Assembly (NCBI GenBank): GCA_964540825.1
Contig: CAZINT010000003.1
Location: forward strand, 83,250-147,249
Origin: an uncultured Gammaproteobacteria bacterium
GTDB taxonomy: Bacteria > Patescibacteriota > Patescibacteriia > Magasanikbacterales > GWA2-37-8
Direction: 5' to 3'
DNA length: 64,000 bases
Shown here: piece by piece, positions 3,881 to 41,576 of the stretch
Layout: every line of letters begins with the position of its first letter
How positions within the stretch are numbered: position 1 is the first letter of the stretch
Translations under genes and position numbers: made by a program
Notes under the pieces: generated by a model
The model's database searches: none
What the model was told of the DNA's origin: nothing
Seen by the model: the letters and a program-made list of their open reading frames with translations, nothing else

Positions 3881-3882
3881 TC

Positions 3883-4334: not shown

Positions 4335-4356
4335 AATCCTCAAATCTTTGAGGATT
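4335..4356 (+). promoter_or_regulatory. perfect 10-bp-arm hairpin that sequesters the rny SD
   Basis: AATCCTCAAAtcTTTGAGGATT: the 3' arm contains GAGGA and is followed by a T-rich stretch and then ATG at 4366. Confidence 0.4.
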
Positions 4357-4365
4357 TTTATTTTT

Positions 4366-6458: not shown

Positions 6459-7028
6459 ATGAAAACTGACATTACACTGTTAAGCACCATGCTCCGCGAA
6501 TTTGCGCTCATTGCCCTCCGCGAGCGGTGCGAAAACGGTGTCCCAGTCCGGGCCGATACGCCCAACGAGCTCATGTCCGAGTTTGCGGCGGTATGGAGCA
6601 CCCTGGACCATGGGACCTGTGACTACCGGCAGTTCTGCGAAATTTTTCAGGCGGTGGCCGAAGCCAGTCTACGTGACGAAAACCAGTGCGCCGTACTCGC
6701 GCTCACCACTCTCTCGTTCATCACCTACGTCGGTCCCAATCGAGCGCGCACCATACTCCAGGCCATCTACCGAGAAAGCCGTACCGCGAAGGCTGGCTCC
6801 TACAACCAGCTGGTCTTTTACCTCGGCGCGCTGGAAGCGATGAGTCTCGCCGGTTCACCAGTCACGATTCTCGAGTGGGGCGTGGATGAAGCGTACAAGC
6901 AGCTCGGAAACGAAGTCTCGCGTGAAAGCGTCTTCCTGAGCTTGTGGATCCAGGCACTCAGCAATCGAGCAGTAACGCTTTCCGAAGAACCCATGCCGGC
7001 CGACCGCTCCGGCGTACTCGCACTCTAA
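6459..7028 (+). CDS. hypothetical protein (GC-elevated cassette C)
   Basis: 189-aa ORF with a GGAGGG SD 6 nt upstream. The same-region ORF 6502..6843 is in another frame and has no SD. No recognisable motifs. Confidence 0.5.
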   Translation: MKTDITLLSTMLREFALIALRERCENGVPVRADTPNELMSEFAAVWSTLDHGTCDYRQFCEIFQAVAEASLRDENQCAVLALTTLSFITYVGPNRARTILQAIYRESRTAKAGSYNQLVFYLGALEAMSLAGSPVTILEWGVDEAYKQLGNEVSRESVFLSLWIQALSNRAVTLSEEPMPADRSGVLAL

Positions 7029-7172
7029 CAAACGCTGCTTGAGGCAGCTGCCGGTGGCGCCCTGTGCCACCCTGAACCAGTGATGGAAAGTTATTTTCAT
7101 TAGTGGTTCTGGCCAGATTTTTCTGACCACCTTCTTTGCCTTAAGAACAAAATTGAGTATACTGAAACAGCT

Positions 7173-28120: not shown

Positions 28121-28546
28121 ATGCACCAGACAACACCGACCACCACACTTTTCTTACAGCTTGCCAAAGCAAGCGCCATGCTCACCCGCCGCTTCGACGC
28201 TGGCCTCGGGGGCCTGAGCCTGAATGAGTTTATTATCCTCTACTACCTCAGCCTTGCGCCCGACACCCAACTGCGCCGCACTGACCTCGCTGATAAAGTA
28301 GGGCTTACGGCTTCTGGCATCACCCGCCTTTTGCTGCCGATGGAAAAAATCGGCCTCGTAAAGCGCGAAACCGACAAAACCGACGCCCGGGTCAGCTTCG
28401 TGCGCCTGGCTTCCGGCGGTAAACACAAACTGGCCGATGCTATCGAACGCATCAACGAGCACGGCGAGGAAATTCTTGGGAACGTTCCCCAAAAAAAGCT
28501 GACTGAATTCAGCGCGCTCCTCTGTGCCATCACTAAAAACATCTAA
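28121..28546 (+). CDS. MarR family transcriptional regulator
   Basis: 141 aa with a MarR-type wHTH (LSLNEFIILYYLSL...RTDLADKVGLTASGITRLL). Confidence 0.8.
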   Translation: MHQTTPTTTLFLQLAKASAMLTRRFDAGLGGLSLNEFIILYYLSLAPDTQLRRTDLADKVGLTASGITRLLLPMEKIGLVKRETDKTDARVSFVRLASGGKHKLADAIERINEHGEEILGNVPQKKLTEFSALLCAITKNI

Positions 28547-28550
28547 CCGT

Positions 28551-29396
28551 ATGAACACAAAAAAGATTGCCCAAGTTTTCACCAGCCGCCCCACCATTGA
28601 GGGGGCTGGCGTAAAACTCCACCGCGGCTTTGCCAACGCCGAACTCCCCCGCTTCGATCCTTTTCTCCTGTTCGATGATTTCAGTTCGCCAAACCCGGCC
28701 GACTATTTGTCCGGTTTCCCCATGCACCCGCACCGCGGCATTGAAACGGTTACGTATATCTTAGACGGCGATGTTCGTCATCGCGACTCGATTGGTAACA
28801 GCGGTGTCATTGGCAAAGGCGACCTGCAGTGGATGAGCTCAGGCCGCGGGATCATTCACGAAGAAATGCCCGAGGGTACCGGCGGCATCAAGGGCTTCCA
28901 GCTCTGGATAAACATTCCTCAAAAAGACAAAATGTCCGCGCCGCGCTACCAGGAAATCAGCAATAAAATTATTCCGGTTATTTCACTCTCCGACCACGCG
29001 GTTGCTCGCGTGATTGCCGGGAATATTGGAAATGTTATTGGACCAGTGCAGGACGTTATAGCAAACCCAGTCTATCTCGATATCACGCTTGAACGGGGTG
29101 CCACACTCGACTTCCCTACCCCGGACGGATTCACGACATTCATCTACATTTTTGATGGAGCACTCGATACCCGAGAAAAAGAAAGTGTTGAACACAAAAA
29201 AGGCAGTATCATTTTATTTGAGCGTGCAGGTGAACTGGTTTCGGTTCGCGCTGGCGCAACAGACGCCCGATTCCTCCTGGTGTCAGGCAAACCACTGAAC
29301 GAACCGATCGCTTGGTATGGACCAATTGTGATGAATACCGAAGACGAAATTAAACAGGCATTTGAAGATCTGCGAACCGGAGCATTTATCAAATAA
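28551..29396 (+). CDS. pirin family protein
   Basis: HPHRGIETVTYILDGDVRHRDSIGN cupin motif. ATG 28551 is preferred over the ORF-track 28524, which overlaps marR. Confidence 0.8.
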   Translation: MNTKKIAQVFTSRPTIEGAGVKLHRGFANAELPRFDPFLLFDDFSSPNPADYLSGFPMHPHRGIETVTYILDGDVRHRDSIGNSGVIGKGDLQWMSSGRGIIHEEMPEGTGGIKGFQLWINIPQKDKMSAPRYQEISNKIIPVISLSDHAVARVIAGNIGNVIGPVQDVIANPVYLDITLERGATLDFPTPDGFTTFIYIFDGALDTREKESVEHKKGSIILFERAGELVSVRAGATDARFLLVSGKPLNEPIAWYGPIVMNTEDEIKQAFEDLRTGAFIK

Positions 29397-29404
29397 CTGC
29401 TCAT

Positions 29405-29434
29405 TAAAAAACCTTTGTACTCAAAGGTTTTTTA
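29405..29434 (+). terminator. rho-independent terminator
   Basis: aaaaaACCTTTGtactCAAAGGTttttt. Confidence 0.6.
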
Positions 29435-29501
29435 CTTTTCTTATGTACCAAGCGATTGTCAAAAATGATTTGCTCGTGTATCGTGGAAAGATACATTATT
29501 C

Positions 29502-30551
29502 GTGTCTAATAAATTTATGAAAAAATCTTTTCTTCTTTTGGCACTGTTCGCCTTACTAAGTCTTCCATTCCAAACTCAAGCGGCCACCTGGAAAGCGCCA
29601 ACGCCCGACGGCTACACCCAAATCACCTGGGCCAAAGCAAACGGCATCAGCACATTTATGAAAGCGCCGGAAGGAAGCGGACACATTGATTTTCTGACCT
29701 TCATCTACTTGCCCTACAACCAAATTAAATTAATTGCTTCCTCTACTCCCAGACTCGATTGGGGCCAAGGCAAGACTCCTTTTGATACCAATGCCGACGT
29801 GCACAACTGGTCATTCGCCAAAACTGTTGCCGAAAAAACAAAACAAGCCACACCTACTGCACAGTTCGTGTGGAATGTTCCTTTCTTTAACTACACCATT
29901 CCCTCGTCCGACCTCAGTCTCGGTCTTAAATCAACTGACGCCACCAGCACCTACATTACAAGCGGCAGTCGCCCCGAAAATGATGTAGCCCAAGATCGCA
30001 AAATGCTCCTCATTGATAATAAAACCAATACGGCCGAAATTAGTGATTTTGATGCAGCACGTTTTGTCAGTTACGGCGACCAGGCAGTCGAAGGATTTGC
30101 CGCAACTGAAACCTGGAAAGGAACCGACACCGATGTTGCCCGCCTCTTTGTCGGCGTGCGCCCCGGCGGTAAAGAATTAGTTGTTTACTGCAGCCAAGGC
30201 GCCTCGCCCAACGAAGCGATCACTGCGCTTAATGCCGCTGGAGTTCCAACTGAAAATCAGTTGCAGGCAGATGGCGGTAGCAGTGCCACCTGCGGATATA
30301 ATTTAGCGGGACAATATTTTGTAGAACCGGGCCGCACGCTCACACATCTGATGGGCGCATTCCCCTTCATCGCTCGCGGCACAGTTACTACTGATAATCT
30401 TAACGTCCGCAAAGGCCCCGGCACTGCCTTCGCTGCCGTTCGCAAACTTAAAAAGGGCGCGGTGGTTACCGCTGTTGAAGAAAAGAATGGTTGGTACCGC
30501 ATCAGTGACAGTCAGGAATGGATAACTAAACAATACTTCAAGGCCCAATAA
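29502..30551 (+). CDS. secreted hypothetical protein with a C-terminal bacterial SH3-like domain
   Basis: Signal peptide ...PFQTQA; the last ~60 aa (NLNVRKGPGTAFAAVRKLKKGAVVTAVEEKNGWYRI) are SH3b-like. Confidence 0.6.
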   Translation: MSNKFMKKSFLLLALFALLSLPFQTQAATWKAPTPDGYTQITWAKANGISTFMKAPEGSGHIDFLTFIYLPYNQIKLIASSTPRLDWGQGKTPFDTNADVHNWSFAKTVAEKTKQATPTAQFVWNVPFFNYTIPSSDLSLGLKSTDATSTYITSGSRPENDVAQDRKMLLIDNKTNTAEISDFDAARFVSYGDQAVEGFAATETWKGTDTDVARLFVGVRPGGKELVVYCSQGASPNEAITALNAAGVPTENQLQADGGSSATCGYNLAGQYFVEPGRTLTHLMGAFPFIARGTVTTDNLNVRKGPGTAFAAVRKLKKGAVVTAVEEKNGWYRISDSQEWITKQYFKAQ

Positions 30552-30565
30552 AAACAATCGTCTTA

Positions 30566-30596
30566 AAAACACCTTCTTACTGAAGGTGTTTTTTTA
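30566..30596 (+). terminator. rho-independent terminator
   Basis: aaaaACACCTTCttacTGAAGGTGTttttttt. Confidence 0.6.
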
Positions 30597-30628
30597 TAAC
30601 AAGTATAATCGATATGCCCTTATATCTA

Positions 30629-30657
30629 TTGACAAAAACTTGTTTTTATACTATAGT
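30629..30657 (+). promoter_or_regulatory. sigma70 promoter TTGACA-17-TATAGT (cassette G)
   Basis: Read directly. Confidence 0.55.
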
Positions 30658-30730
30658 GAATTATTGATTTTTGAGTATTTTATTTTACTTCCACAGAATA
30701 AAATACTGAGGAATTTTACAGAGGTAGATA

Positions 30731-31090
30731 ATGGAAAAACTAGGTGCCCGCCCGCATCTTCGGCTGTGCCCTTCACCTGCGGAAGGTGGATCAGAGCCAC
30801 CTCGCGAACCCTCACTTGAGGTAATCGAACCGAGCTTACCACCAGGAGTGCCGCAAACCCCCTTAACCCCTCAAGAGCATTCGACGCTCATGATCATCGG
30901 CCTCAGTCTGCGGGTACGAGCATGTCTTGCCATCATACACGCAGAGATAAATCGGCCGGAGGTTACCGTTTATCCCGGAACTTCGGCTGACGAGATACAG
31001 TCTGTTATCGATCTCATGGCCGAGTACGGTTGGAAAGGAACCTACTATAGCGATAAAAAAGATATTCTCTATATCTGTAGGGTCCGCTGA
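30731..31090 (+). CDS. hypothetical protein (high-GC cassette G)
   Basis: 119 aa with a GAGGT SD. Followed by a nested GC-rich hairpin GGCAGACGcCTCCACcctGTGGAGacCCGTCTGCC at 31099-31135. Confidence 0.4.
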   Translation: MEKLGARPHLRLCPSPAEGGSEPPREPSLEVIEPSLPPGVPQTPLTPQEHSTLMIIGLSLRVRACLAIIHAEINRPEVTVYPGTSADEIQSVIDLMAEYGWKGTYYSDKKDILYICRVR

Positions 31091-31225
31091 AATTCCCCCT
31101 GGCAGACGCCTCCACCCTGTGGAGACCCGTCTGCCGCCCCCAACTATTTTCTTTCTTGATTAGAGAAAATTGAGGCGGCCAATATCCACTTGCTCTTTTT
31201 TTCAAAAGAGTTACAGTACCTCTCT

Positions 31226-31483
31226 ATGAAAGAAATTACGCTCTATACCACAACCTATTGTCCCTACTGCCACCGGGCTAAGCAATTGCTCAATCAGCTT
31301 GCTTTAGAATACAAAGAAATAAATCTTTCAAATAACGATAAACTTCGTGAAGAGCTTACCGAAAAATACAGCTGGTACACCGTACCCATGATCACGATTG
31401 GAGACGAATTTATTGGCGGGTTTGATGATTTACATAAGTTACACCAGCAAGGAAGACTGATCGACAAGCTACATGGTGAATAA
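31226..31483 (+). CDS. glutaredoxin (GrxC/NrdH-like)
   Basis: MKEITLYTTTYCPYCHRAK...VPMITIGDEFIGGFDDL. Confidence 0.75.
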   Translation: MKEITLYTTTYCPYCHRAKQLLNQLALEYKEINLSNNDKLREELTEKYSWYTVPMITIGDEFIGGFDDLHKLHQQGRLIDKLHGE

Positions 31484-31497
31484 AAAATAAATTGCTT

Positions 31498-31531
31498 AAA
31501 ATCCGTAAACGCTACGGATTTTTTTATTTTT
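31498..31531 (+). terminator. rho-independent terminator
   Basis: aaaATCCGTAaacgcTACGGATttttttattttt. Confidence 0.6.
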
Positions 31532-31538
31532 AAAAAAC

Positions 31539-31567
31539 TTGTCAAAAAAACTTCAAGCAGGTAGTAT
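31539..31567 (+). promoter_or_regulatory. sigma70 promoter TTGTCA-17-TAGTAT (cassette H)
   Basis: Read directly. Confidence 0.5.
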
Positions 31568-31615
31568 GGCCCCACCTCTAAACGCGCCCCCGTAAGGCGT
31601 ATAAGGAGCAGTCAC

Positions 31616-32503
31616 ATGACCCAGCGTCGCCACCTCGCCACACCCCAACCGAACCTGTTTACCGTCCGCGTGAAACGGATCGCGGCTAACATCAAGCGCT
31701 GGCTTGCCAGGCACGGTGTCACCGCGCCCGTCACAACAGCGATCACGCTCGGGAGCGGTCTCGGCGGCTACGGCTCCGACCACCCCTCGGCTATCACGAT
31801 CCCGTATGCGAAGGTCGGCCTGCCAAAGTGCGGCATGGTCGGGCACGCCGGAGTCCTCCGCTTCATGCAGGTCGGCAAGCACGGCATCCTCATCTTCGAC
31901 GGACGTGCGCACGGGTACGAAGGCTATCCGATCGAGTCCGTGGTCATGGCCGTGCGCGCTGCGGCGTTCGCGGGCGCCACGACGCAGGTCATCACCTGCG
32001 CGTCGGGCGGCATCAACCCCAACTACGTTGCCGGCCAGCTGGTGGTCATCAAAGACCACCTGAACCTGATGGGCCGGAACCCCCTCACGGGCAGGAACGA
32101 TCAGAAGCATGGACCGCGCTTCCCCGACATGACGCAAGCGTACGATCCGGAACTCCGCACCCTCGCCGGCAACGCCGGAAAGGCCATCGGTCTCACCCTC
32201 GCCGAGGGTGTTTACGCGGCGCTCAGCGGCCCCAACTACGAGACTCCGGCCGAGGTCCGCATGCTCAGCATCCTCGGCGCTGACATGGTGGGCATGTCCA
32301 CCGTGCCCGAGGTGCTCGCGCTGCGTCACCTCAGCGTCCGCGTCCTTGGCATATCGTGCATCGCCAACAAGGCCGCGAGCACCAACCAAGAGCCGCTCAG
32401 CCACGACGAAGTGGTCGCGGCCGGACGCAACGCCGCACCCCGCTTCAAGATGCTCCTCGACGGTATCGTCGAATCGCTCCCCCTCCCCGAAACCACGGCC
32501 TAA
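31616..32503 (+). CDS. purine nucleoside phosphorylase (PNP/MTAP family)
   Basis: GPNYETPAE and GADMVGMSTVPEV are hallmark PNP-I/MTAP motifs. AAGGAG SD. Strongly GC-rich relative to its neighbours. Confidence 0.8.
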   Translation: MTQRRHLATPQPNLFTVRVKRIAANIKRWLARHGVTAPVTTAITLGSGLGGYGSDHPSAITIPYAKVGLPKCGMVGHAGVLRFMQVGKHGILIFDGRAHGYEGYPIESVVMAVRAAAFAGATTQVITCASGGINPNYVAGQLVVIKDHLNLMGRNPLTGRNDQKHGPRFPDMTQAYDPELRTLAGNAGKAIGLTLAEGVYAALSGPNYETPAEVRMLSILGADMVGMSTVPEVLALRHLSVRVLGISCIANKAASTNQEPLSHDEVVAAGRNAAPRFKMLLDGIVESLPLPETTA

Positions 32504-32540
32504 ACGGCCGAACCGTTCTTAGAGTAACGCAAGGGTAGAC

Positions 32541-32613
32541 GGGCGAGTCAGCAAGATCGCCCTACTACCATATTTCGCAGCATTTCTGCTACGAAGTATG
32601 GTGGCGATCTTGC
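32541..32613 (+). promoter_or_regulatory. nested, mutually exclusive long hairpins 3' of the PNP gene
   Basis: GGGCGAgtcagcaagATCGCCC overlaps GCAAGATCGCC...ACCATATTTCG-GCAGcatttCTGC-CGAAGTATGGT...GGCGATCTTGC. Confidence 0.4.
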
Positions 32614-32628
32614 CTATATATACTTTTT

Positions 32629-32656
32629 AAAAAATCCCTATGCCGGGGATTTTTTT
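32629..32656 (+). terminator. rho-independent terminator
   Basis: aaaaaATCCCtatgccgGGGATtttttt. Confidence 0.55.
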
Positions 32657-32734
32657 AATTTACACAGTAACCTGTAACATTTACCCCTTCTCGGGTATTA
32701 TCTTTATAGACGGATTAATCCTCTAGTACATTTT

Positions 32735-33268
32735 ATGACTCTTAGCGAAGAAACAGCTTTGGTTAAACGTGCCAAAAGCGGCAACAAAGAAGCCCTGGGA
32801 CTTCTTTTTGAATCACTGACCCCAAAACTCTACGGGTATCTTTTAAACACGCTAAAAGATAGACCGCTTGCCGAAGATATCGTGCAACAAACCTGGATCA
32901 AAGCGACGACCGCCTTGCCACGTTTTGAACTGCGCAGCATCCCCTTTGGCGCCTGGCTCTTTGCGATTGCCAAAAATGAATGCCGGCAACACTGGCGCAA
33001 ACACACTCCCGATTCGCTGGAACACATACCAGAAAGTGAACACGCCGTCACCACTACCGAACAACAAACTATCGAACACCATATTCTTATCGATCAACTC
33101 CTCGCCAAACTCTCACCCGAAGATCAAGAAATTTTACGCCTCAGGTATATTGCGGATTTGTCGTTTGAAGCTATTGCCGCTGTAGCAACTATTTCCTCAC
33201 TCACTGCCCGCGTCCGTTTGCACCGCGCGCTCAAACGCGCTCGAATTATTTTACAAAATACTAAGTAG
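32735..33268 (+). CDS. RNA polymerase sigma-70 factor, ECF subfamily
   Basis: 177 aa with sigma region 2 and region 4 features (IVQQTWIKA..., EILRLRYIADLSFEAIA). Confidence 0.8.
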   Translation: MTLSEETALVKRAKSGNKEALGLLFESLTPKLYGYLLNTLKDRPLAEDIVQQTWIKATTALPRFELRSIPFGAWLFAIAKNECRQHWRKHTPDSLEHIPESEHAVTTTEQQTIEHHILIDQLLAKLSPEDQEILRLRYIADLSFEAIAAVATISSLTARVRLHRALKRARIILQNTK

Positions 33269-33275
33269 CCCGTGT

Positions 33276-34475
33276 ATGCAATTTACTCCTTCCGAATTCA
33301 AAAATGCCCTCACCGCGTGGGGCAAAGACCAACGCATTCCTTTTCCCCAAAGCGAAGCACTTAAAAAAACTATTCTTACACTACAACCGGAACAACCGAC
33401 CACTCGTTATTTCAAACGCGGGTGGCTGGCCGGTTTTGCTCTTGCGAGCATTGCCGTTCTGATCCTTTTCGTCAACCACACTTCCCGCCCGGAATACAGC
33501 TCGAGTACAGTAAGCCTGCACCAGAAAGCCGGAATAGCTAGCGATTCGGCCGCCAATAAACTAAGTGACAGGGCCGCTGAAGATTTGGGTATGGAATATG
33601 CCGAACCTACCGGTCTTGATTCGGCCGCACTACCCGATGAAATAAAAACAGCTCCACCCCTCTTTCAAGATACCGCCGAAATTTCTGCGCGCGATACACG
33701 TGAATACCTTAAAACAGATTATTCAGCAGGGGTTGAAACACGCGCGGTCACCAAACTCACGCTTCAGTTAGAAACACTTGTTCGCGGACATGGCGGACGC
33801 ATCGATAGCTTTTCATCCAACAGTCGGTACGGTTCCCTCACTTTTGTCTTGCCAAAAAAATCATTAGAAGCGTTTCGGAGCGAACTTGTCGGCCTCGTAC
33901 CCGAGCGTTTTTTGAATGAAACAATTCAAGCTCAAAATCTTCTGCCGCAAAAAAATGATCTTGACGACGAGCAGGCGAGCAGTGAAGCAGAACTCAAGCG
34001 TGCCCAAGATGCCGAGACTGCCCTTATTAAAACGCATACTCAAACAGTTACCAACTTGCAGGCACAAATAAACACGCACATCAAAAGTATTCAAGCACTT
34101 TCACGGGCCACAGCCCCTACCCCCGAAGAAGCGACGCGCATTGCAGCCAGTATCACCGCCCACAATCAAAGTATCGCTTATCTGCGCCGCCAATTGACCG
34201 AAGAAAACGCCAGCTTTGCACGTAAGCAGACTGACAGCGAAGAAACAATTACCTACCTGCAAAGCGAACTTGCTTCACTTAAAAAACAAAACACTCAGCT
34301 GATTGATTCAGCGGAAACAATTCAGGGCTCTATCTCTATTTCGCGGATAACCTTTGGCGAATTTCTTGAAGCCTACCTTCCTTATTTCCGAGAAATTCTT
34401 TTCGTTATCGGAGTCCTGGGCGCTGGCCTCTACTGGCGCTTTGGGCGCACTCGCCGGCTACAGCTCCCGAGCTAA
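33276..34475 (+). CDS. membrane protein with extracytoplasmic coiled-coil; candidate anti-sigma factor (DUF4349-like)
   Basis: Immediately downstream of the ECF sigma (7-nt gap). One TM near residue 60 and a C-terminal TM. Anti-sigma function inferred from position only. Confidence 0.45.
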   Translation: MQFTPSEFKNALTAWGKDQRIPFPQSEALKKTILTLQPEQPTTRYFKRGWLAGFALASIAVLILFVNHTSRPEYSSSTVSLHQKAGIASDSAANKLSDRAAEDLGMEYAEPTGLDSAALPDEIKTAPPLFQDTAEISARDTREYLKTDYSAGVETRAVTKLTLQLETLVRGHGGRIDSFSSNSRYGSLTFVLPKKSLEAFRSELVGLVPERFLNETIQAQNLLPQKNDLDDEQASSEAELKRAQDAETALIKTHTQTVTNLQAQINTHIKSIQALSRATAPTPEEATRIAASITAHNQSIAYLRRQLTEENASFARKQTDSEETITYLQSELASLKKQNTQLIDSAETIQGSISISRITFGEFLEAYLPYFREILFVIGVLGAGLYWRFGRTRRLQLPS

Positions 34476-34505
34476 CAGCTCTGTCTGCCCCCCGCCCCTC
34501 TTGCC

Positions 34506-35066
34506 ATGCAAGGAAAGCAGCGGTACACTCAGAGCATCTCATGTAGCTCTATGCCCAAAAATATCGTCATCGTTGTACTCATTATTTTTACCGGAATCAG
34601 TGGATTTTATTTTTGGAAATCGCGCAGACTAATTCCAGCACCTCGCCCTGAAGTACTTTTGCCCTCACTCTTGCCAGCAGGATGGGACACCAACCTTACG
34701 CCCGAGCAGTACAGAATTTTACGCGACAAAGATACTGAGCGGCCATTCACGAGCCCCCTCCTCCACGAAAAACGTCCGGGCACCTATGTGACCGCGGACT
34801 GCGGCGAACCCGTATTCCGTTCCGAACAAAAATACGACTCCGGCACCGGCTGGCCAAGCTTTTGGGCTCCAATCAGCGAAGATGCCGTGGTGCTCGAAGC
34901 GGACTATCAACTTCTTCTGCCACGCACTGAAGTACTATCTAAATGCGGCGGACACCTCGGGCATGTGTTTGATGACGGTCCAGCACCAACCGGTAAACGA
35001 TACTGCATGAACGGCCTCGCCCTCCGATTTATTCCCGACGAGGCGCCAACTTCGACTTCGCCCTAA
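34506..35066 (+). CDS. msrB: peptide-methionine (R)-S-oxide reductase MsrB with an N-terminal hydrophobic anchor
   Basis: GTGWPSF, RYCMNGLALRF and Cys pairs of SelR. N-terminal IVIVVLIIFTGISGFYFW helix. The alternative start at 34548 is possible. Confidence 0.8.
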   Translation: MQGKQRYTQSISCSSMPKNIVIVVLIIFTGISGFYFWKSRRLIPAPRPEVLLPSLLPAGWDTNLTPEQYRILRDKDTERPFTSPLLHEKRPGTYVTADCGEPVFRSEQKYDSGTGWPSFWAPISEDAVVLEADYQLLLPRTEVLSKCGGHLGHVFDDGPAPTGKRYCMNGLALRFIPDEAPTSTSP

Positions 35067-35076
35067 CACTCGTTAC

Positions 35077-35289
35077 ATGCCAGAAATAATCAAAAATTCA
35101 GTTAATCAACTCCGTCTGAAGGCAGCTGTTACCCAAGAAGATTTTGCGGCCGCGATTGGCGTAACCCGTCAGACGGTGAGTGCGATTGAGAAAGGAAACT
35201 ATACCCCTTCAGTTTTACTCGCTTTAAAAATTGCCCGCTTTTTTAAAAAAAGAGTTGAGGATATTTTTTCTATTACCTATGAAAAATAA
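35077..35289 (+). CDS. XRE family HTH transcriptional regulator
   Basis: 70 aa with LRLKAAVTQEDFAAAIGVTRQTVSAIEKG. Confidence 0.7.
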   Translation: MPEIIKNSVNQLRLKAAVTQEDFAAAIGVTRQTVSAIEKGNYTPSVLLALKIARFFKKRVEDIFSITYEK

Positions 35290-35650
35290 TTCCCTTGTTA
35301 CAGAGCTTGCTTTGTCTGCCCTGCTCATCACCATCGCTGCTTGTTTTTTTACGCCACTCCAAACTATCTGGATGCCAAGCATGGTACACAGTTTTTTTCT
35401 TATCGGACTAGCATTGGTTTTTTGTGTTTTTGCTGTTTTCGTCTGGAAAGAACGCGCCCTGGACGAACGAGAAGAGCAGCAGCGCCTCATGACGGGACGA
35501 ATTGGTTTTTTGGCGGGAGCGGGCCTGCTGGTTGCCGGTATTATCATCCAAACATTGCGTCACGAACTCGATACCTGGCTTATCATCACACTCTCCGGCA
35601 TGGTTCTCGCGAAACTCATTACCCGCCTTTCGATGGGACTTCGCGGCTAG
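35279..35650 (+). CDS. small membrane protein partnered with the XRE regulator
   Basis: ATG 35279 overlaps the XRE stop by 11 nt; four hydrophobic helices. Confidence 0.45.
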   Translation: MKNNSLVTELALSALLITIAACFFTPLQTIWMPSMVHSFFLIGLALVFCVFAVFVWKERALDEREEQQRLMTGRIGFLAGAGLLVAGIIIQTLRHELDTWLIITLSGMVLAKLITRLSMGLRG

Positions 35651-35740
35651 ATTAAACTTATCCACATGATAATGTAAAGTTAACTTTACATTGTTTTTTT
35701 TCGTTATATACTATAGCTATTATTAACTAATTTTTTCGCT

Positions 35741-36367
35741 ATGCGGAACAAATTCTTTCTACTCATACTTGCTGGTGCCGGGCTTATGCTGGCTGGCGCA
35801 GGCTGTGAAAAGGCTGCTATGACCACAAACACCCCCTCAAACTCAGCTGCAATGCATGGCGAATCCATGCCAAAAACGGATGGTGCGATGATGGATCACG
35901 ATGACGCGATGACAGACCGCCAAGACACCATGATGAAAGATGATGCCAGTGCCGATGCAATGAAAAAGGACGACGCGATGATGAAAGACAAAGCCGCCGG
36001 AGACACCATGATGAAAGATGACAAAAAAGAAGGCGCCATGATGGACGACAAAAAAAGTGCCGGCACCTACGAAGACTACGCCGCCAGTAAACTGGCCTGG
36101 GCCAAAGACGGCAAAGTAATTCTCTTTTTCAAAGCCTCGTGGTGCCCAACATGTCAGGCAGTTGATAAAGATATTCTTGCCCATCTTGGAAATATCCCCG
36201 GCAAAACATACATTTTGAAAGTCGACTACGACACGTCAGCCGAACTCAAGAAAAAATACGGCGTTACTTACCAACACACCTTTGTTCAAGTAGACACAAA
36301 CGGAACGATGATCAAAAAATGGAGCGGAAGCCCAACGCTGGCCGCTTTGACTGCTGAAATTAAATAA
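35741..36367 (+). CDS. thioredoxin-like lipoprotein with a Met/Asp/Lys-rich repetitive linker
   Basis: Lipobox LAGAGC, four DAMMKD-like repeats, and a C-terminal thioredoxin fold with WCPTC. Confidence 0.7.
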   Translation: MRNKFFLLILAGAGLMLAGAGCEKAAMTTNTPSNSAAMHGESMPKTDGAMMDHDDAMTDRQDTMMKDDASADAMKKDDAMMKDKAAGDTMMKDDKKEGAMMDDKKSAGTYEDYAASKLAWAKDGKVILFFKASWCPTCQAVDKDILAHLGNIPGKTYILKVDYDTSAELKKKYGVTYQHTFVQVDTNGTMIKKWSGSPTLAALTAEIK

Positions 36368-36368
36368 C

Positions 36369-38114
36369 ATGCTACTCTTACTTCTTTCATTCACAGCTGG
36401 AGTTCTGACTGTTCTGGCGCCCTGTACCTTGCCGCTCCTGCCGATTATTATCGGCGGGTCGGCGGGCGGGACTTCCAAGCGAAGCCCGTATATTATTACT
36501 TTAGCGCTTGCCGGCGGGATTGTACTGTTTACGCTGCTTCTTAAATTCAGCACGCTGTTTATCAATATTCCCCAAAACGTCTGGAGTATTATTTCTGGCT
36601 CGATTATTATCATCCTGGGCATTACAAATGTCTTTCCTGTTCTCTGGGAAAAAATCAACATAGGGCTTGGCCTCGGCAGCCGATCGAGTCAGCTGCTTTC
36701 GGAGTCTGCCGCTCACAAAAACCGCTGGGGCGACATACTCATCGGCCTCTCGCTCGGCCCGGTTTTCTCGAGCTGTTCACCGACCTACTTCTTGATCTTG
36801 GCTACTGTCCTGCCGCGCAGCTTGGCTGTCGGCACATTGTATCTTGTCGCTTACGCGCTTGGGCTCGCACTCATTCTTCTCTTGGTTAGCATCTTGGGAC
36901 GGCGCTTTACTGCTCGTGCTGCTTGGGCTACTGATCCAAAAGGCTGGTTTAAACGCGGACTTGGGGTAGTGTTTATTATTATCGGCTTAGTTATCTTTAC
37001 GGGTACGGACAAAAAAATCCAAACGTATCTGGTACAAAACAACTATTACCCCGGCGGATCACTTGAACAAAGCCTGATTGAACGCTTTAACAATACTTCC
37101 CTCGAGCCGCAAGCAGACACAGCTTCAGCAACAACCATGCCTACGGATATGACCAAAAATTTTCCGCGCTACCGCGAAATTACTAATCCTGCCGGTTACG
37201 TCAATACACCGCCGGTCAAACTGGCCGATTTGATCGGTAAAAAAGTCATCCTCGTTGATTTCATGACCTACAGCTGCATCAACTGCATCCGAACGTTTCC
37301 CTATCTCAATGCTTGGTACGATAAATATAAAGATGATGGGCTCGAAATCGTTGGCATCCACACGCCGGAATTTGCCTTTGAACACAAACAAGCCAATGTG
37401 GAAAAAGCACTTGCTGAATTTGGCATTAAATTTCCTGTTGTTCTTGATAATGACTATGGTACCTGGAACGCCTATGGCAATAATTATTGGCCACGCAAAT
37501 ACCTGATTGATATCGATGGCTATATTGTCTACGATCACATTGGCGAAGGCAACTACGACGAAACCGAAGCAAAAATCCAAGAACTGTTGCAAGAAAAAAT
37601 GCTGCGCGACCACGCAACAACAACACTCGAAACCTCATTGGTTACTATTCCAGCTCGCACCCCAAACCGTGTAGCTAGCCCGGAAACATATTTCGGCGCT
37701 GATCGTAACCGAAACTTTGCCAACGGTGACGCAGGTAAGCTTGGAACCCAGACCATTACCGGAAATGTAACCGGCAAACTCAACGACCTCAACCTCCTTG
37801 GTACCTGGAATTTTAACCGGGAATACACCGAAGCGTCTGCCGGCGCCACCATCAGCTATCGCTATAGCGCAGCCCACGTCTTTTTTGTTGGCAGTGCTAC
37901 CAAAGCCGTACGCGTAGAAGTGCTTGAAGACGGCAAACCACTACCTCAAGATGCGGCCGGAAAAGATATCGAATACATTAATGGAAAAAGTTACGTAACC
38001 GTACAGGAAGACCGACTTTATGAACTTGTCAAAAACCTCGGCAGCGAAGAGCATACCCTGGAACTTAAAATTGAAGGTGGGGGTTTGAAAGCGTATACAT
38101 TTACGTTTGGCTAA
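36369..38114 (+). CDS. DipZ-like protein: CcdA/DsbD-type transmembrane electron-transfer domain fused to a redoxin/thioredoxin-like domain and a C-terminal beta domain
   Basis: N-terminal APCTLPLLP and a second-half Cys pair in TM helices (CcdA-like), a periplasmic Trx-like YSCINC domain, and a start 1 nt after the upstream stop (translational coupling). Confidence 0.75.
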   Translation: MLLLLLSFTAGVLTVLAPCTLPLLPIIIGGSAGGTSKRSPYIITLALAGGIVLFTLLLKFSTLFINIPQNVWSIISGSIIIILGITNVFPVLWEKINIGLGLGSRSSQLLSESAAHKNRWGDILIGLSLGPVFSSCSPTYFLILATVLPRSLAVGTLYLVAYALGLALILLLVSILGRRFTARAAWATDPKGWFKRGLGVVFIIIGLVIFTGTDKKIQTYLVQNNYYPGGSLEQSLIERFNNTSLEPQADTASATTMPTDMTKNFPRYREITNPAGYVNTPPVKLADLIGKKVILVDFMTYSCINCIRTFPYLNAWYDKYKDDGLEIVGIHTPEFAFEHKQANVEKALAEFGIKFPVVLDNDYGTWNAYGNNYWPRKYLIDIDGYIVYDHIGEGNYDETEAKIQELLQEKMLRDHATTTLETSLVTIPARTPNRVASPETYFGADRNRNFANGDAGKLGTQTITGNVTGKLNDLNLLGTWNFNREYTEASAGATISYRYSAAHVFFVGSATKAVRVEVLEDGKPLPQDAAGKDIEYINGKSYVTVQEDRLYELVKNLGSEEHTLELKIEGGGLKAYTFTFG

Positions 38115-38145
38115 ACCCCATTAAATTAAAACTTTGTGTAAAAAA

Positions 38146-38180
38146 TAAAAATTCGCTGAACAGCGAATTTTTATTTTTAA
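38146..38180. terminator. bidirectional rho-independent terminator
   Basis: aaaaATTCGCTGaaCAGCGAATttttatttttaa, between the convergent genes. Confidence 0.6.
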
Positions 38181-38265
38181 AATGCATGCAAGGTGAGCCT
38201 TAGTCTAAAGCTATTCTTGGATGCGCCGAACGGTCGAGTGACCGTTCGGGTGGTGGGGCGTTTAC

Positions 38266-38598
38266 TCAGCGGCCCGGGAACACAAGTCCCGACCGGTAGT
38301 CCTTGTACTCGATCTGGGTGCAGACCATACCATCTTCCCGGTACTTGCGGATCTCACACTTCTTCACCGCAGGAGCGGGTGAAGGGAAGCTCGGCTTGGT
38401 CGCGAAGAGTCCTGGAAGGTGGACGCCGTCGCAGATAATATGGTACTTGCCGTACCAATCCTCCTGCTGCGGTTTCTGCGGCTGAGACACGGTGGACGCA
38501 CCAGGCACCAAGCCCAAACGCTGAACCGTGCTCGGCTGCACAGAACCACAGCCTGCCAGAGAACTCATCACAAACAACCCGATTAGTGCCCGCTTCAT
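38266..38598 (-). CDS. hypothetical lipoprotein (high-GC cassette I)
   Basis: Lipobox SLAGC; 110 aa. Followed on its 3' side by the perfect hairpin CCGAACGGTCgagtGACCGTTCGG (38226-38249). Confidence 0.45.
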   Translation of the reverse strand: MKRALIGLFVMSSLAGCGSVQPSTVQRLGLVPGASTVSQPQKPQQEDWYGKYHIICDGVHLPGLFATKPSFPSPAPAVKKCEIRKYREDGMVCTQIEYKDYRSGLVFPGR

Positions 38599-38770
38599 GC
38601 TTCCATCCTCTCAAAAAAGAGCCCATCACGTACGTGCAACGCTCGTGTTTTGACACGTCGCACAATTCTCTAGAACAGATTTTGACCGTACTCCAAAAAT
38701 TGTTTTTTGTCAATTCTTCAAAGAGTCTATACCTATTTTTCGCTATACTCATCATGTCATAGTCATAATC

Positions 38771-38799
38771 TTGACGAATTAATTGTTTTTAAGTACTAT
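38771..38799 (+). promoter_or_regulatory. sigma70 promoter TTGACG-17-TACTAT for tRNA-Met
   Basis: Read directly. Confidence 0.5.
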
Positions 38800-38821
38800 A
38801 GGCTTTGTTTTAAGCCCTCAT

Positions 38822-38898
38822 GTCAGGGTAGCTCAGCTGGTTAGAGCACGGGATTCATAACCCCGAGGTCGGCGGTTCGATCCCGCCTCCTGACACCA
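38822..38898 (+). tRNA. tRNA-Met (anticodon CAU), CCA encoded
   Basis: Acceptor GTCAGGG/TCCTGAC, D arm GCTC-AGCTGGTTA-GAGC, anticodon loop TTCATAA, T arm GGCGG-TTCGATC-CCGCC, 3' ACCA. Initiator, elongator or Ile-lysidine identity is not resolved. Confidence 0.85.
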
Positions 38899-38910
38899 CC
38901 ACAGTACTAA

Positions 38911-38965
38911 GCAGAATAGGCAGAATAAGTACTAAGCAACCGATAACTTACTCTGCCTATTCTGC
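38911..38965 (+). repeat. 20-bp-stem hairpin (19 of 20 paired) abutting the tsaD start
   Basis: GCAGAATAGGCAGAATAAGT, a 15-nt loop, then ACTTACTCTGCCTATTCTGC. The direct repeat GTACTAAGCA at 38904-38913 and 38929-38938 flanks it. Confidence 0.5.
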
Positions 38966-38979
38966 TTAATCTGCTTACC

Positions 38980-40008
38980 ATGCTTGTACTCGGCATTGAA
39001 TCATCTTGCGACGACACTTCGGTTGCCCTGCTCGACTCTTCTAGCCAGGGTCATTTTATTATTGCTGAAAAAACTTTTTCACAGATTGAAATCCACCAAA
39101 AATATGGTGGCGTCGTTCCCGAAATTGCCGGCCGTATGCATGCCGAAAAAATTGCGCCAATTATTGAAGAAGTTCTCAAAGGCCAAGACAAGCCGGATAT
39201 AATTGCTGTAACTGCCGGCCCAGGCCTTATCACCGGACTCATTGTCGCGGTCGAAGCCGCTCGCACGCTCGGGTATGCCTGGAATATTCCAATTGTTGCC
39301 ACCAATCATATTAGTGGCCACGTGCATTCGGTCGAAATTCAAAACGAAAAAACTACTACTCCTGCCCCGATCGCCTTTCCCGCACTCGCGCTCATTGTGA
39401 GCGGTGGCCACACTGAACTTATTCTGATGCAAAGCCATACGGAATGTACAATTCTTGGACGCACCAAAGACGATGCTGCTGGAGAATGTTTTGATAAAGT
39501 CGCGAGCCTCTTAGGCTTTGCCTACCCGGGCGGCCCGCACATTTCTCGCGAAGCAGTGAACGGAAACCCAAACGCAATTGAGTTCCCCCGCCCGATGATT
39601 CATGACAAGAGTTATGATTTTAGTTTTTCAGGGCTGAAGACTGCGGCCCTGTACTGGCTCCGTGACAACATAGTAGGAGAAAAAGTTTCTCAAACAGATT
39701 TTTGTGCCAGTTTCGAACAAGCGATCATTGATGTACTGGTAACCAAAACAATGCGTGCTGCCACTGAGCACAAACCAAAGAGTATTATTCTCGGCGGCGG
39801 TGTTTCGGCTAACAAAAAATTACGCGAAGCGCTGACAAACGCTGTGCAGACAGATTTTCCAGAAACAACTATGCACCTTCCCCCACCCGGGTATTCCATG
39901 GATAACGGCGCTATGATTGCCGTGGCCGGGTATTACCAAGCCTTAAACAAAAACTTCACTAACTGGACAGAACTGAGTGCCAATCCGAATTGGCGAATTG
40001 ACCGCTAG
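38980..40008 (+). CDS. tsaD: tRNA N6-adenosine threonylcarbamoyltransferase TsaD (Kae1/Gcp family)
   Basis: MLVLGIESSCDDTSVAL and NHISGHV motifs; 342 aa. Confidence 0.9.
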   Translation: MLVLGIESSCDDTSVALLDSSSQGHFIIAEKTFSQIEIHQKYGGVVPEIAGRMHAEKIAPIIEEVLKGQDKPDIIAVTAGPGLITGLIVAVEAARTLGYAWNIPIVATNHISGHVHSVEIQNEKTTTPAPIAFPALALIVSGGHTELILMQSHTECTILGRTKDDAAGECFDKVASLLGFAYPGGPHISREAVNGNPNAIEFPRPMIHDKSYDFSFSGLKTAALYWLRDNIVGEKVSQTDFCASFEQAIIDVLVTKTMRAATEHKPKSIILGGGVSANKKLREALTNAVQTDFPETTMHLPPPGYSMDNGAMIAVAGYYQALNKNFTNWTELSANPNWRIDR

Positions 40009-40046
40009 CCATTTCTTGTATTTTTAGCCTAATTAAGCCCTTTATC

Positions 40047-40075
40047 TTTACAAAAGGGCTTTTTTGTGCTATTAT
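40047..40075 (+). promoter_or_regulatory. promoter-like module TTTACA-17-TATTAT with TGn (cassette J), embedded in a hairpin AAGCCCTTT/AAAGGGCTT
   Basis: ctttatctTTACAaaagggcttttttgtgcTATTAT is about 85% identical to the module at 41457. Confidence 0.45.
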
Positions 40076-40155
40076 TTTCTGTTTATCCGTGGGTCTTTCT
40101 CTCTGCCTGCGGAAAACCTGTTCATTAACAAAAGAGAGAGACAAGGATCGCGAAC

Positions 40156-41277
40156 ATGCCGAATGGAAAAACCGATCTGCTCGCTCCGGGTGAACTGGGT
40201 GCTGTCATCGTGACAGCGCTCGGTTTCAAGAACAATCGCTCCGCAGCCGATTACCTCAAGAGTACGGAATACCAGCAGCGTTTCTCGGCGGCGTCAGACG
40301 CCTACCAGCCGATCGACTTTGGCGGCGGTACCTACGTACCGCTTTCACCCAAAAACAAAGGACCACTCGATCTCACCGGCCTCATGGAAGAGACTCGTGG
40401 CGACCAGGAGCGACCCACCTGGATCCCGCTCTTCAAAGCTGGCACGCCGAAGCCTGTCGGAGCCTACAACGTCGCTCTCGTCTGTGACGGAGCGGCGCGG
40501 TTCTACAGCCGCATCGGCGCCAACACCCGTGTGAAAGGGTGGATGTACCGCATCATCTCGGGAGAGCGCGACTGCTACGCCGTGTGGGCGCGAACCGACG
40601 GACAGCCGCTCCGCGGGGCCATGGGCAACTCGGTAGATTCGAAGCGCTTCTACGCGACGCAGTCTGCCCGCGGCCTCATCTACGCCCGCGAGGCACTCTT
40701 CGACCACGTCGGCACGATGGTGGGCTACGCCACCACCACGACGCAGATCGAGGTCCGCGTGCGCGACCAGGACCCCAAACTCTGCGACAACCTGCAGGTC
40801 TTCCGCAAGACGAGCGTCAGCTACAGCTACGACCGCGAGAAGCATGATCCGCCCCGGCTGAACGACTTCGGCCAGGTTTGGCACCCCCTCATCGAGCGTG
40901 CCTACAAATGTTTCGAGCTGTACTGCATGCCCCTGCCGGAGGAGCTACAACACCGACAGCTCTTCTTCATAGAGCAGCTCGCCAAGAGCAAGGCTGACCA
41001 GCGGACATACCCCAACTTCGACAGCAAGATCGGGAAGCTCGACTGGCAGCTAGCGCTCGACAAGGTCGACGAGCCCTGGCAGCTCAGCGTCGTGATCCGG
41101 CGTTACTGCAACAGCCGCTTCGACAGCTCCCCCTGCTGCAATGACACCACCTCCAGTCGCTGGACCAAGATGCTTAGCCAGTACGTCTGCTCCACCGAGC
41201 GTCGCACCAAGCTTCAGGAGATGGTGAACAGCTACTGCTCGGTCGTCGATAGCATGTGGAACTACAGCGGCGACTAA
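40156..41277 (+). CDS. hypothetical protein (high-GC cassette J)
   Basis: 373 aa with an AAGGA SD. GC-rich third positions. The antisense ORFs 40345..40884 and 41050..41307 were rejected. Confidence 0.5.
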   Translation: MPNGKTDLLAPGELGAVIVTALGFKNNRSAADYLKSTEYQQRFSAASDAYQPIDFGGGTYVPLSPKNKGPLDLTGLMEETRGDQERPTWIPLFKAGTPKPVGAYNVALVCDGAARFYSRIGANTRVKGWMYRIISGERDCYAVWARTDGQPLRGAMGNSVDSKRFYATQSARGLIYAREALFDHVGTMVGYATTTTQIEVRVRDQDPKLCDNLQVFRKTSVSYSYDREKHDPPRLNDFGQVWHPLIERAYKCFELYCMPLPEELQHRQLFFIEQLAKSKADQRTYPNFDSKIGKLDWQLALDKVDEPWQLSVVIRRYCNSRFDSSPCCNDTTSSRWTKMLSQYVCSTERRTKLQEMVNSYCSVVDSMWNYSGD

Positions 41278-41317
41278 CCCGCGCTCCACTAACGGTTGGT
41301 CTAACAACCAATCACCA

Positions 41318-41430
41318 CCTCTTCCAAACCCTGGGGGAGCGCACTACAGTTTTTCTAAAAATATTAGAACCACTGTAGTCTCCCCCAGATTATAAAAATA
41401 ACTCCTTTTTAGGGAGTTGTTTTTTATATA
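41318..41430 (+). repeat. 3' module copy 1: 17-bp interrupted stem CTGGGGGAG-cgc-ACTACAGT...ACTGTAGT-CTCCCCCAG plus terminator AACTCCtttttaGGGAGTT-T6
   Basis: Near-identical to 42166..42275. Confidence 0.6.
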
Positions 41431-41456
41431 CAAAAGCAACACCCGCCACCTTTATC

Positions 41457-41485
41457 TTGACAAAAGGGTTCTTTTGTGCTATACT
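41457..41485 (+). promoter_or_regulatory. sigma70 promoter TTGACA-17-TATACT with TGn (cassette K)
   Basis: ctttatcTTGACAaaagggttcttttgtgcTATACT. Confidence 0.5.
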
Positions 41486-41576
41486 CACTTGTTGTTTTGA
41501 TAGCTTTTTGTCTGCATAAATAGTGCGTATTATAAAGCTTCTCAAACTGAAGCTCACAATTGATTGGAGGACAGAG

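Follow-up and report, generated by a model that had tools for sequence, protein, structure and literature searches.

The subject of this work is a cluster of seven genes within a 64,000-nucleotide stretch of DNA (the window) from contig CAZINT010000003.1 of assembly GCA_964540825.1, which is titled as an uncultured Gammaproteobacteria bacterium and placed by its GTDB lineage in Patescibacteriota. The genes encode an extracytoplasmic function (ECF) sigma factor, a 399-residue membrane protein, the methionine sulfoxide reductase (Msr) MsrB, a small regulator of the XRE family, a protein with four transmembrane segments (4-TM protein), a membrane-anchored thioredoxin (Trx) and a transporter fusion of the DipZ type. 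We consider it probable, if by no means assured, that they form a unit for repair of oxidative damage at the cell surface, organised in three transcription units, in which trx and dipZ are controlled by the XRE protein. From comparison of many related loci, the conserved regulator of this unit looks like the small XRE repressor with its 4-TM partner rather than the ECF sigma factor. The features of the cluster, by position in the window, are as follows.

32626-32658, plus strand: terminator-like hairpin (inverted repeat) with T-run, 3' of the upstream purine-nucleoside phosphorylase (PNP) gene; left cluster boundary
32673-32699, plus strand: candidate promoter of the sigma gene, TGTAAC-N6-CCCTTCTC-NN-GTATT; near-identical in locus L003, also in L088
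32735-33268, plus strand: ECF-type sigma factor, 177 residues (Sigma70_r2, Sigma70_r4_2, TIGR02937)
33276-34475, plus strand: 399-residue DUF4349 membrane protein, anti-sigma candidate, after a 7-nucleotide gap
34501-34529, plus strand: msrB promoter, sigma-70-like, TTGCCA-17-TACACT (promoter scan and four-lineage alignment)
34551-35066, plus strand: MsrB, 171 residues from Met16 of a longer frame that opens at 34506 (SelR, TIGR00357)
35077-35289, plus strand: XRE-family helix-turn-helix protein, 70 residues, DNA-binding domain only (HTH_3); proposed trx-dipZ repressor
35279-35650, plus strand: 4-TM partner of XRE, 123 residues, overlapping xre by 11 nucleotides; no curated family
35672-35691, no strand assigned: putative palindromic operator ATGTAAAGTTAACTTTACAT, 20 bp; its right half holds the -35 box of trx
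35685-35712, plus strand: trx-dipZ promoter, sigma-70-like, TTTACA-16-TATACT, 10 of 12 positions, best match of the region
35741-36367, plus strand: anchored thioredoxin, 208 residues, lipobox Cys22, WCPTC at residues 134-138 (Pfam Thioredoxin), after a 90-nucleotide gap
35807-36055, plus strand: Met-rich tether of the thioredoxin with MMKDD-type repeats (direct-repeat families), 15 Met in 83 residues
36369-38114, plus strand: DipZ, 581 residues (Pfam), 1 nucleotide after trx
38141-38178, plus strand: terminator-like hairpin, perfect 18-nucleotide inverted repeat with A- and T-runs; right cluster boundary

A previous reading of the locus from its letters alone (the sequence-only reading) had described seven tightly spaced genes on one strand, and the list of open reading frames (ORFs) of the window reproduces both their coordinates and their spacing, with a terminator-like hairpin and T-run on either side of the cluster. 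Its domain calls (ECF sigma, MsrB, XRE, WCPTC thioredoxin, DipZ-like fusion) are confirmed by Pfam and NCBIfam. By hydropathy, one hydrophobic segment is seen in MsrB, four in the small XRE partner and six in DipZ.

Relatives of the cluster are cited below as numbered loci (L001 etc.). They include a DipZ-centred scan of species-representative genomes, which gave 80 loci, and an XRE-centred sample of 80 metagenome loci, run to remove the sampling bias of the former. The whole arrangement, including the PNP gene, the sigma gene and its partner, recurs in L003/L004 (GCA_964510495.1). The genome of L001/L005 (GCA_964634875.1) keeps a glutaredoxin-like gene, msrB, xre, the 4-TM gene, trx, dipZ and tsaD, and has a gene for 143 residues in place of the PNP, sigma and partner genes. 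The closest named DipZ loci belong to Minisyncoccia, Paceibacteria, Kaiserbacteria, Adlerbacteria and Saccharibacteria; farther DipZ genes are found in Actinomycetota, Verrucomicrobiae, a Frateuria and archaea. Several assemblies that carry the operon (L004-L006, L029, L039 and others) are titled "uncultured Gammaproteobacteria" while their nearest named relatives are Patescibacteria, and such titles are probably placeholders or misassignments. Judged by its closest named DipZ relatives, the window itself probably stems from a member of Patescibacteria.

The xre and 4-TM genes lie immediately 5' of (trx-)dipZ in about 25 DipZ-centred loci, at DipZ identities of 32-54%. In the XRE-centred sample, the 4-TM gene follows xre in 67 of the 70 loci with enough sequence, and 43 of 47 loci encode Trx and/or DipZ/CcdA in the next 5.5 kb. 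Among the four exceptions, L117 has the XRE/4-TM pair followed by a gene (6569-7093) that looks rhodanese-like by eye, with a possible other function in sulfur redox. Dispersal of the genes among relatives had been named as a sign that no module exists; trx, dipZ, xre and the 4-TM gene stay tightly co-located across divergent relatives. Judged by synteny, the conserved core in divergent Patescibacteria is made of xre, the 4-TM gene, the putative operator, trx and dipZ or ccdA, with msrA and/or msrB in some loci.

The XRE protein is little more than its HTH_3 domain (PF01381, E 3e-14, residues 11-62 of 70). The palindrome 5' of trx is perfect and unique in the window. Among the relatives, 36 of 39 palindrome sites are intergenic and located directly 5' of xre, trx or dipZ, while about 6 sites are expected from shuffles. 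A logo of 95 sites from both samples reads ATGTAAAG-T-nn-A-CTT(T/G)ACAT, and a TAnnnT -10 box follows 16-18 nucleotides after TTKACA in 82 of them. The operator is present in 20 of the 25 DipZ-centred loci with XRE/4-TM and in 0 of the 55 without, a contrast whose Fisher p-value is too strong, as the loci are phylogenetically non-independent. In many loci there are two sites, in front of xre and in front of trx or dipZ; the window, L001 and L003 have the trx site only. The most divergent XREs, 49-53% identical, are those of L051 and L061, and at their operators (6860 and about 6716, respectively) both half-sites are altered symmetrically, to ATGTATAG...CTATACAT and ATGTATTG...CCATACAT, which looks like co-evolution of protein and site. 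From the symmetry of the site, its overlap with the -35 box and its co-occurrence with XRE we infer that the palindrome is the operator of an XRE dimer, as predicted from its signature, and that XRE would repress by occlusion of the promoter.

Besides the shared ancestry of the loci, two further points weigh against this interpretation. Conservation of the right half-site is partly just that of the -35 box, and the palindrome of the window precedes a run of eight T and could double as a weak terminator. Nor do we accept plain intrinsic termination as the main role of the palindrome: the stem has 8 A/T-rich pairs and the logo contains no consistent T-run (T at position +21 in 57 of the 95 sites, at +25 in 58). 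The palindrome is kept also 5' of xre, where a terminator role is not evident, and this counts against a plain terminator as well.

The XRE/4-TM pair might instead be an autonomous, addiction-like or mobile cassette that was inserted near redox genes, its palindrome being an autoregulatory site or a terminator. Antitoxin function is common among small XRE proteins, the palindrome stands 5' of xre itself in many loci, and the run of eight T in the window would suit a terminator. The HipB, HigA and MqsA-type antitoxin models of NCBIfam all stay under cutoff for XRE, the first two kinds with weak matches, and its partner is a 4-TM protein of no family. We regard the cassette as highly improbable: the sole operator of the window, L001 and L003 is found 5' of trx and not of xre, many other loci have a second site directly 5' of trx or dipZ, and the regular presence of Trx, DipZ or CcdA downstream in the XRE-centred sample is unexpected for a mobile element. 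Moreover, divergent loci of the DipZ-centred sample keep the pair, and its composition is unremarkable (G+C content at third codon positions, GC3, of 0.32 for XRE and 0.52 for the 4-TM gene) against foreign, variable flanks (PNP at 0.85 and two others).

The 4-TM protein belongs to a family of 429 cluster representatives at E <=1e-3, all of about 120 residues. A Pfam scan of 18 divergent members at E <=1 gave scattered noise and no family, and a word-indexed homologue search with the window protein returned 9 proteins only, without informative names. Invariant in the 18 members are Met32 in the predicted outer loop (Pro33 nearly so), E58, D62 and E63 in the predicted cytoplasmic loop, R74 at the start of the third predicted helix and K112 in the fourth. 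The AlphaFold model contains four long helices and is of low confidence (mean predicted local distance difference test score 60.5), which is another point on the negative side. As the weakest step of our model, we propose that the 4-TM protein modulates XRE upon an envelope signal, in analogy to transcription factors elsewhere that co-encoded membrane proteins restrain (PMC6193735).

A bolder version can be imagined, in which the XRE/4-TM pair would sense the redox state of the envelope in one step, as a kind of sensor not described before and found in many divergent loci of Patescibacteria. The 4-TM protein would detect oxidants by its invariant Met32, next to the nearly invariant Pro33, in the outer loop; its conserved cytoplasmic DERE...R loop would control XRE, which would then be released from the operator overlapping the -35 box. 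Anchored MsrB, or the CcdA-MsrAB fusions described below, would restore both the Met-rich tether and the sensor methionine and thus close a feedback loop. Taken as a whole, we find this sensor distinctly unlikely.

The sequence-only reading had listed the XRE/4-TM pair as one part among others and implied control by the ECF sigma factor. The pair is indeed present as described, and comparative evidence lifts it from a component to the conserved regulator; the sigma factor fares worse. It contains regions 2 and 4 only (Sigma70_r2 E 5e-16, Sigma70_r4_2 E 7e-11) and scores 89.9 bits against a cutoff of 42.9 for TIGR02937, as expected of an ECF (group IV) sigma factor. All equivalog and subfamily models of NCBIfam stay far under cutoff (e.g. 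PRK12513, 88 versus 206), so that no named ECF subgroup can be given. Its partner reaches 29.2 bits for DUF4349 (Pfam threshold 27.7). A short, predicted cytoplasmic segment at the N-terminus is followed by an N-proximal hydrophobic segment (residues 49-67) and a DUF4349/coiled-coil ectodomain; a hydrophobic C-terminal tail, seen in the alignment, stays below the hydropathy threshold of 1.6. Neither an anti-sigma domain nor an HxxxCxxC zinc motif was found in the protein by Pfam and NCBIfam, and it has zero cysteines.

The family of this partner is small, with 8 proteins found. In 5 of 5 readable lineage contexts (window/L084, L003, L087, L088, L089) its gene directly follows an ECF sigma gene in the same orientation, and the next gene varies: anchored msrB in three contexts, a gene on the opposite strand in one and a protease in another. 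The N-terminal stretch of about 45 residues (L..WGK..R) is present in all five members whose neighbourhood was read and missing in three of the eight (P0125, P0126, P0128), which resemble plain DUF4349 proteins. The partner has 402 residues in L003, and those of L087 and L088 are 39% and 32% identical to the window protein. Such an association makes the 399-residue protein a reasonable anti-sigma candidate.

If the sigma/anti-sigma pair sensed envelope oxidative stress and drove msrB, xre-4-TM and trx-dipZ through shared ECF promoters, a common motif should stand before these genes. The window has three distinct promoters with no ECF motif in common. GTAAC-N15-18-GGTAT, TAAC-N-CGGGTA and the 27-nucleotide sigma promoter with 3 mismatches match the site upstream of the sigma gene only. 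The latter, possibly autoregulated, is kept in L003 and the distant L088 and occurs once in the 64-kb window at <=3 mismatches. Unlike it, the promoters of msrB and trx are sigma-70-like; the search for a shared ECF-type motif, suggested in the sequence-only reading, thus gave a negative answer. For msrB, TTGnCn-17-GTACACT aligns across the window, L001, L003 and L087, and is kept also in L001, a genome with no sigma gene at the locus. The trx promoter is the strongest sigma-70-like match within 31000-39500.

Tight spacing on a single strand and the sigma-partner-msrB adjacency, found again in L003 and the more distant L087, speak for control by the ECF factor. Expression of msrAB in Neisseria is known to be Ecf-dependent. 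SigF/NrsF of Azospira provides another precedent (PMC4436054). No terminator is seen between 34475 and the msrB promoter at 34501, so the sigma factor could still boost msrB, xre and the 4-TM gene by read-through. On the other hand, the sigma pair is found in L003/L004 and L087 and is missing from L001/L005, which keeps msrB-xre-4-TM-trx-dipZ at 65-97% protein identity, so the other genes of the locus can do without it. In L088 and L089 the pair is present and msrB is not. Among the DipZ-centred loci only L003/L004 have ECF sigma and partner, and dozens of divergent xre-4-TM-trx-dipZ loci have no ECF sigma gene nearby. Together with the promoters, this makes it quite improbable that the ECF factor governs the whole cluster.

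As for the redox proteins, the thioredoxin (Pfam Thioredoxin, E 6e-9) carries a WCPTC active site, and the nearest solved structures of its domain are classical thioredoxins, not ResA/Etrx-like proteins. Its N-terminus has a signal sequence with a lipobox, AGAGC22, that fits the PROSITE pattern, from which it would be a lipoprotein. A lipobox is present in 7 of 71 homologues; among the others, the N-termini listed open with a few charged residues ahead of a hydrophobic run. Between anchor and fold lies the tether with its MMKDD-like repeats, 19% of whose residues are Met (DipZ has 5 Met in 581). Among 71 homologous Trx ORFs the median Met content of the tether is 14%, and 52 reach at least 10%; the tether is conserved in composition, not in sequence. 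It may thus serve as a sink in which oxidants are sacrificially trapped. The obvious alternative function is copper binding; Met-rich motifs are well-known ligands of Cu(I). In L135, a small anchored protein with a Met-rich stretch and an HH..A..MA motif is encoded after the operon (4531-4929); by this motif it looks DUF305-like, and it hints at a possible link of the Met-rich sequences to metal (copper).

DipZ is composed of a six-segment CcdA membrane domain (DsbD_TM, DsbD_2), a redoxin domain (Redoxin, E 8e-14) and a C-terminal Thioredoxin_10 domain (E 1e-29). Its ectodomain matches that of Mycobacterium tuberculosis DipZ (Rv2874; structures 2HYX/5CYY) at E 2e-53, with conserved YSCINC. The protein has exactly four cysteines, all at expected sites: C19 (APC19) and C136 (SC136SP) in the CcdA helices and the C303/C306 pair. 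It is a full homologue of the mycobacterial protein. A glutaredoxin-like gene (CPYC) recurs near or in these operons (window 31229-31483, L091 6336-6548, L094 913-1083, L098, L151 9116-9307) and in L091 and L094 sits between the 4-TM gene and the operator; its product could be a cytoplasmic electron donor.

MsrB is a clear member of SelR (PF01641, E 9e-45) and TIGR00357 (159.6 bits, cutoff 113), with catalytic Cys152 within RYCMN. One cysteine is left at each of the two zinc-binding CxxC positions (ADCGEP, SKCGGH) instead of the full motifs, so we group it with the zinc-free forms. The N-terminal anchor, described in the sequence-only reading, is seen by hydropathy at residues 4-22, while the start of the protein has to be moved. 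Database gene calls (P0001) begin at Met16, which is why an exact database look-up of the 186-residue form from 34506 gave no match, and the conserved -10 box of the msrB promoter (34524-34529) lies 3' of the ATG at 34506. For both reasons, msrB most likely starts at 34551 and not at 34506. Most homologues of this MsrB type have a positive N-terminus followed by the hydrophobic anchor, as for N-in, C-out topology. Anchored MsrB is encoded beside DipZ in the window, L001, L003, L006, L042 and L069; L087 has an anchored MsrB as well.

The strongest support for the idea of electron flow from transporter to Msr comes, in our opinion, from gene fusions. In nine loci (L107, L112, L119, L131, L133, L135 at 2593-4473, L139, L151 and L162) the slot of dipZ is occupied by a single ORF that joins the CcdA membrane domain to MsrA and, in the eight that are not cut before it, also to MsrB. 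The ORFs encode 587-714 residues, and 390 in one locus that ends at a contig edge. All these loci retain the xre and 4-TM genes, the operator and the anchored thioredoxin. Since the CcdA domain of DipZ has its C-terminal end outside, the fusions would put Msr outside the membrane, beside the transporter, and the retained tethered thioredoxin suggests a shuttle. We know of no earlier description of a CcdA-MsrA-MsrB fusion.

Several findings fit less well with such a pathway. The MsrB of the window is more positive after its anchor (KSRR...R) than before it (MPKN), which does not favour C-out. With charge flanks so ambiguous, the argument for extracytoplasmic MsrB rests on homologues and fusions. 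Elsewhere, many loci encode linked MsrA and MsrB that follow a DipZ-type ectodomain protein, have no anchor and are probably cytoplasmic; co-location can hence reflect co-regulation and not direct electron transfer. Finally, no msrA is present in the 64-kb window, so local repair would concern the R-epimer only.

With these points in mind, DipZ and the tethered thioredoxin might serve another extracytoplasmic role, either general reduction or isomerisation of disulfides in surface proteins or, through the tether, handling of copper or other metals. MsrB would then be a mere co-regulated neighbour, supplied with electrons from elsewhere, or a cytoplasmic enzyme. Trx and/or DipZ without any msr gene in reach in 26 of 47 XRE-centred loci would agree with it, as would the unanchored Msr proteins, the ambiguous flanks of the window MsrB, the Cu(I)-binding capacity of Met-rich motifs and the presumed DUF305-like protein of L135; DipZ also has a complete redoxin ectodomain of its own and a carbohydrate-binding-like domain. 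It is more difficult to reconcile with the nine loci of this operon type in which a fusion takes the place of DipZ and the anchored thioredoxin is retained, with anchored MsrB beside DipZ in six loci including the window, and with the experimentally shown CcdA-Etrx-MsrAB2 pathway of the same logic (PMC3914529). We judge the other role to be unlikely, yet serious enough to be kept in view. The proposal of an extracytoplasmic thiol/methionine-sulfoxide repair module, made in the sequence-only reading, has gained from the synteny in divergent relatives, the recurrent msr genes, the nine fusions and the anchored MsrB homologues.

The model of the repair unit that we consider probable is then as follows. 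The first transcription unit would comprise the ECF sigma gene and the gene of its candidate DUF4349 anti-sigma factor, a pair specific to a small clade, with read-through into the next unit being possible. The second, transcribed from its own sigma-70-like promoter, would contain msrB, xre and the 4-TM gene, and the third trx and dipZ, whose sigma-70-like promoter has its -35 box within the 20-bp palindrome. An XRE dimer bound to the palindrome would cover this box and repress trx-dipZ, and the co-encoded 4-TM protein would tune XRE according to an envelope signal. Upon expression, cytoplasmic reductant would pass the membrane via the CcdA cysteines C19 and C136 of DipZ, and electrons would reach the CxxC of its ectodomain and the WCPTC of the tethered thioredoxin. 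The thioredoxin would recycle membrane-anchored MsrB, and methionine-R-sulfoxide in surface proteins would be repaired. Substrates of MsrB would probably include the Met-rich tether of the thioredoxin itself, acting as an oxidant sink.

The redox chemistry of such a unit is not new in itself. The extracellular CcdA-Etrx-MsrAB2 repair pathways of Streptococcus pneumoniae are experimentally established (Saleh et al. 2013, PMC3914529), and the msrAB operon of S. gordonii stands close as well (PMC7034828). They share with our cluster a CcdA-type transporter, a surface-tethered thioredoxin-fold protein, a co-encoded anchored Msr, on the surface there and presumably here, and a monoderm-type cell. 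In contrast to them, the transporter is here a DipZ fusion with redoxin and Thioredoxin_10 domains of its own, the tethered Trx is classical-like (WCPTC), not ResA/TlpA-like, and has a Met-rich tether, the reductase is MsrB only, and the phylum is a different one. We found no description, for the streptococcal systems, of regulation like that by XRE/4-TM and the putative operator. Electron transfer was shown in S. pneumoniae, whereas here gene fusion and synteny point to it.

The DipZ of M. tuberculosis resembles that of the window in the CcdA membrane domain, the thioredoxin-like domain with YSCINC and the C-terminal domain similar to carbohydrate-binding modules. It differs in genomic context, which here consists of XRE/4-TM, anchored Trx and MsrB. 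To our knowledge, the physiological substrate of mycobacterial DipZ is not established. In Neisseria, PilB is a Trx-MsrA-MsrB fusion; as there, a DsbD/CcdA-type pathway would feed an envelope Msr, and msr is linked to an ECF sigma factor. Unlike in Neisseria, no Trx-Msr fusion exists in the window (related loci fuse CcdA to MsrA-MsrB) and no ECF promoter is detectable before msrB.

The SigF/NrsF-MrpX-YedY1 hypochlorite response of Azospira, as our cluster is predicted to do, combines an ECF sigma/anti-sigma pair with an extracytoplasmic Msr and a Met-rich proposed oxidant sink. MrpX of Azospira suillum is a periplasmic Met-rich scavenger of hypochlorite that is regenerated by methionine sulfoxide reductase (Melnyk et al. 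2015, PMC4436054). In the window, the Met-rich part is a tether within the thioredoxin and not a separate soluble protein, the reductase is the thiol-based MsrB and not a molybdoenzyme (MsrP/YedY), and conservation of the module does not extend to the ECF pair. As far as we know, NrsF has no DUF4349 domain, unlike the partner in the window. The LytTR regulatory systems (HdrRM/BrsRM), which pair a transcription factor with a co-encoded membrane inhibitor (PMC6193735), are similar in genetic logic only: the gene of a small, sensor-less DNA-binding protein is coupled in translation to that of a small polytopic membrane protein. The domain is here XRE/HTH_3 and not LytTR, and the family of the membrane partner is not in Pfam.

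What distinguishes our unit from known ones is, in short, the transporter, the thioredoxin with its tether, MsrB as the sole reductase, the regulator and the phylum. No description of the operon, its operator or the 4-TM family was found in the literature, and queries on DipZ with Msr, on Msr and thioredoxin in Patescibacteria, on CcdA in the candidate phyla radiation, on DUF4349 and on COG1476 gave nothing relevant.

The surroundings of the cluster have some features of their own. The PNP gene (31616-32503) has 66% GC and a GC3 of 0.85, as compared with about 0.45-0.53 in its neighbours, and is present in L003 and not in L001; it looks like a recent gain from a high-GC organism, and the sigma pair was possibly acquired alongside. 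Between the PNP and sigma genes lies an imperfect long hairpin (32551-32613; -43.5 kcal/mol, z-score -6.5), single-copy, without Rfam match and 100% identical in L003 despite differing flanks. It could be a stabiliser of the 3' untranslated region, a small RNA or an insertion relic. Other high-GC patches are located at 38266-38598 (minus strand), 40156-41277 (plus strand) and about 2001-4000, with GC3 of 0.71 and 0.81, and include a minus-strand small lipoprotein-like ORF and an ORF of 373 residues without Pfam match. The genome appears to carry several foreign islands.

Another hairpin, of about 70 nucleotides (38902-38973), separates tRNA-Met (38822-38898) from tsaD and has chance-level microRNA matches only in Rfam. 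Rfam as a whole, run over 29000-41500 in E-value mode and over the entire window in gathering mode, returned tRNAs and chance-level matches only. A few kb upstream of the cluster, genes for a MarR-family regulator and a pirin (window 28524-29396 and upstream; L001 5812-7087) lie in conserved synteny and may be a further redox-related pair.

Patescibacteria, or the candidate phyla radiation, make up a large and mostly uncultured share of bacterial diversity, with very small genomes in which few regulators or stress defences can be recognised. If our assumptions are true, many divergent members of this group would share a regulated system for repair of their surface. The predicted operator would be testable and could be used for mapping of the regulon, and the 4-TM proteins, in about 430 sequence clusters, would represent an unannotated family of candidate sensors. 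The CcdA-MsrA-MsrB fusions and the Met-rich tether offer testable hypotheses on how exposed proteins may be protected from oxidants in cells that lack a periplasm, and together they suggest a physiological role for DipZ.

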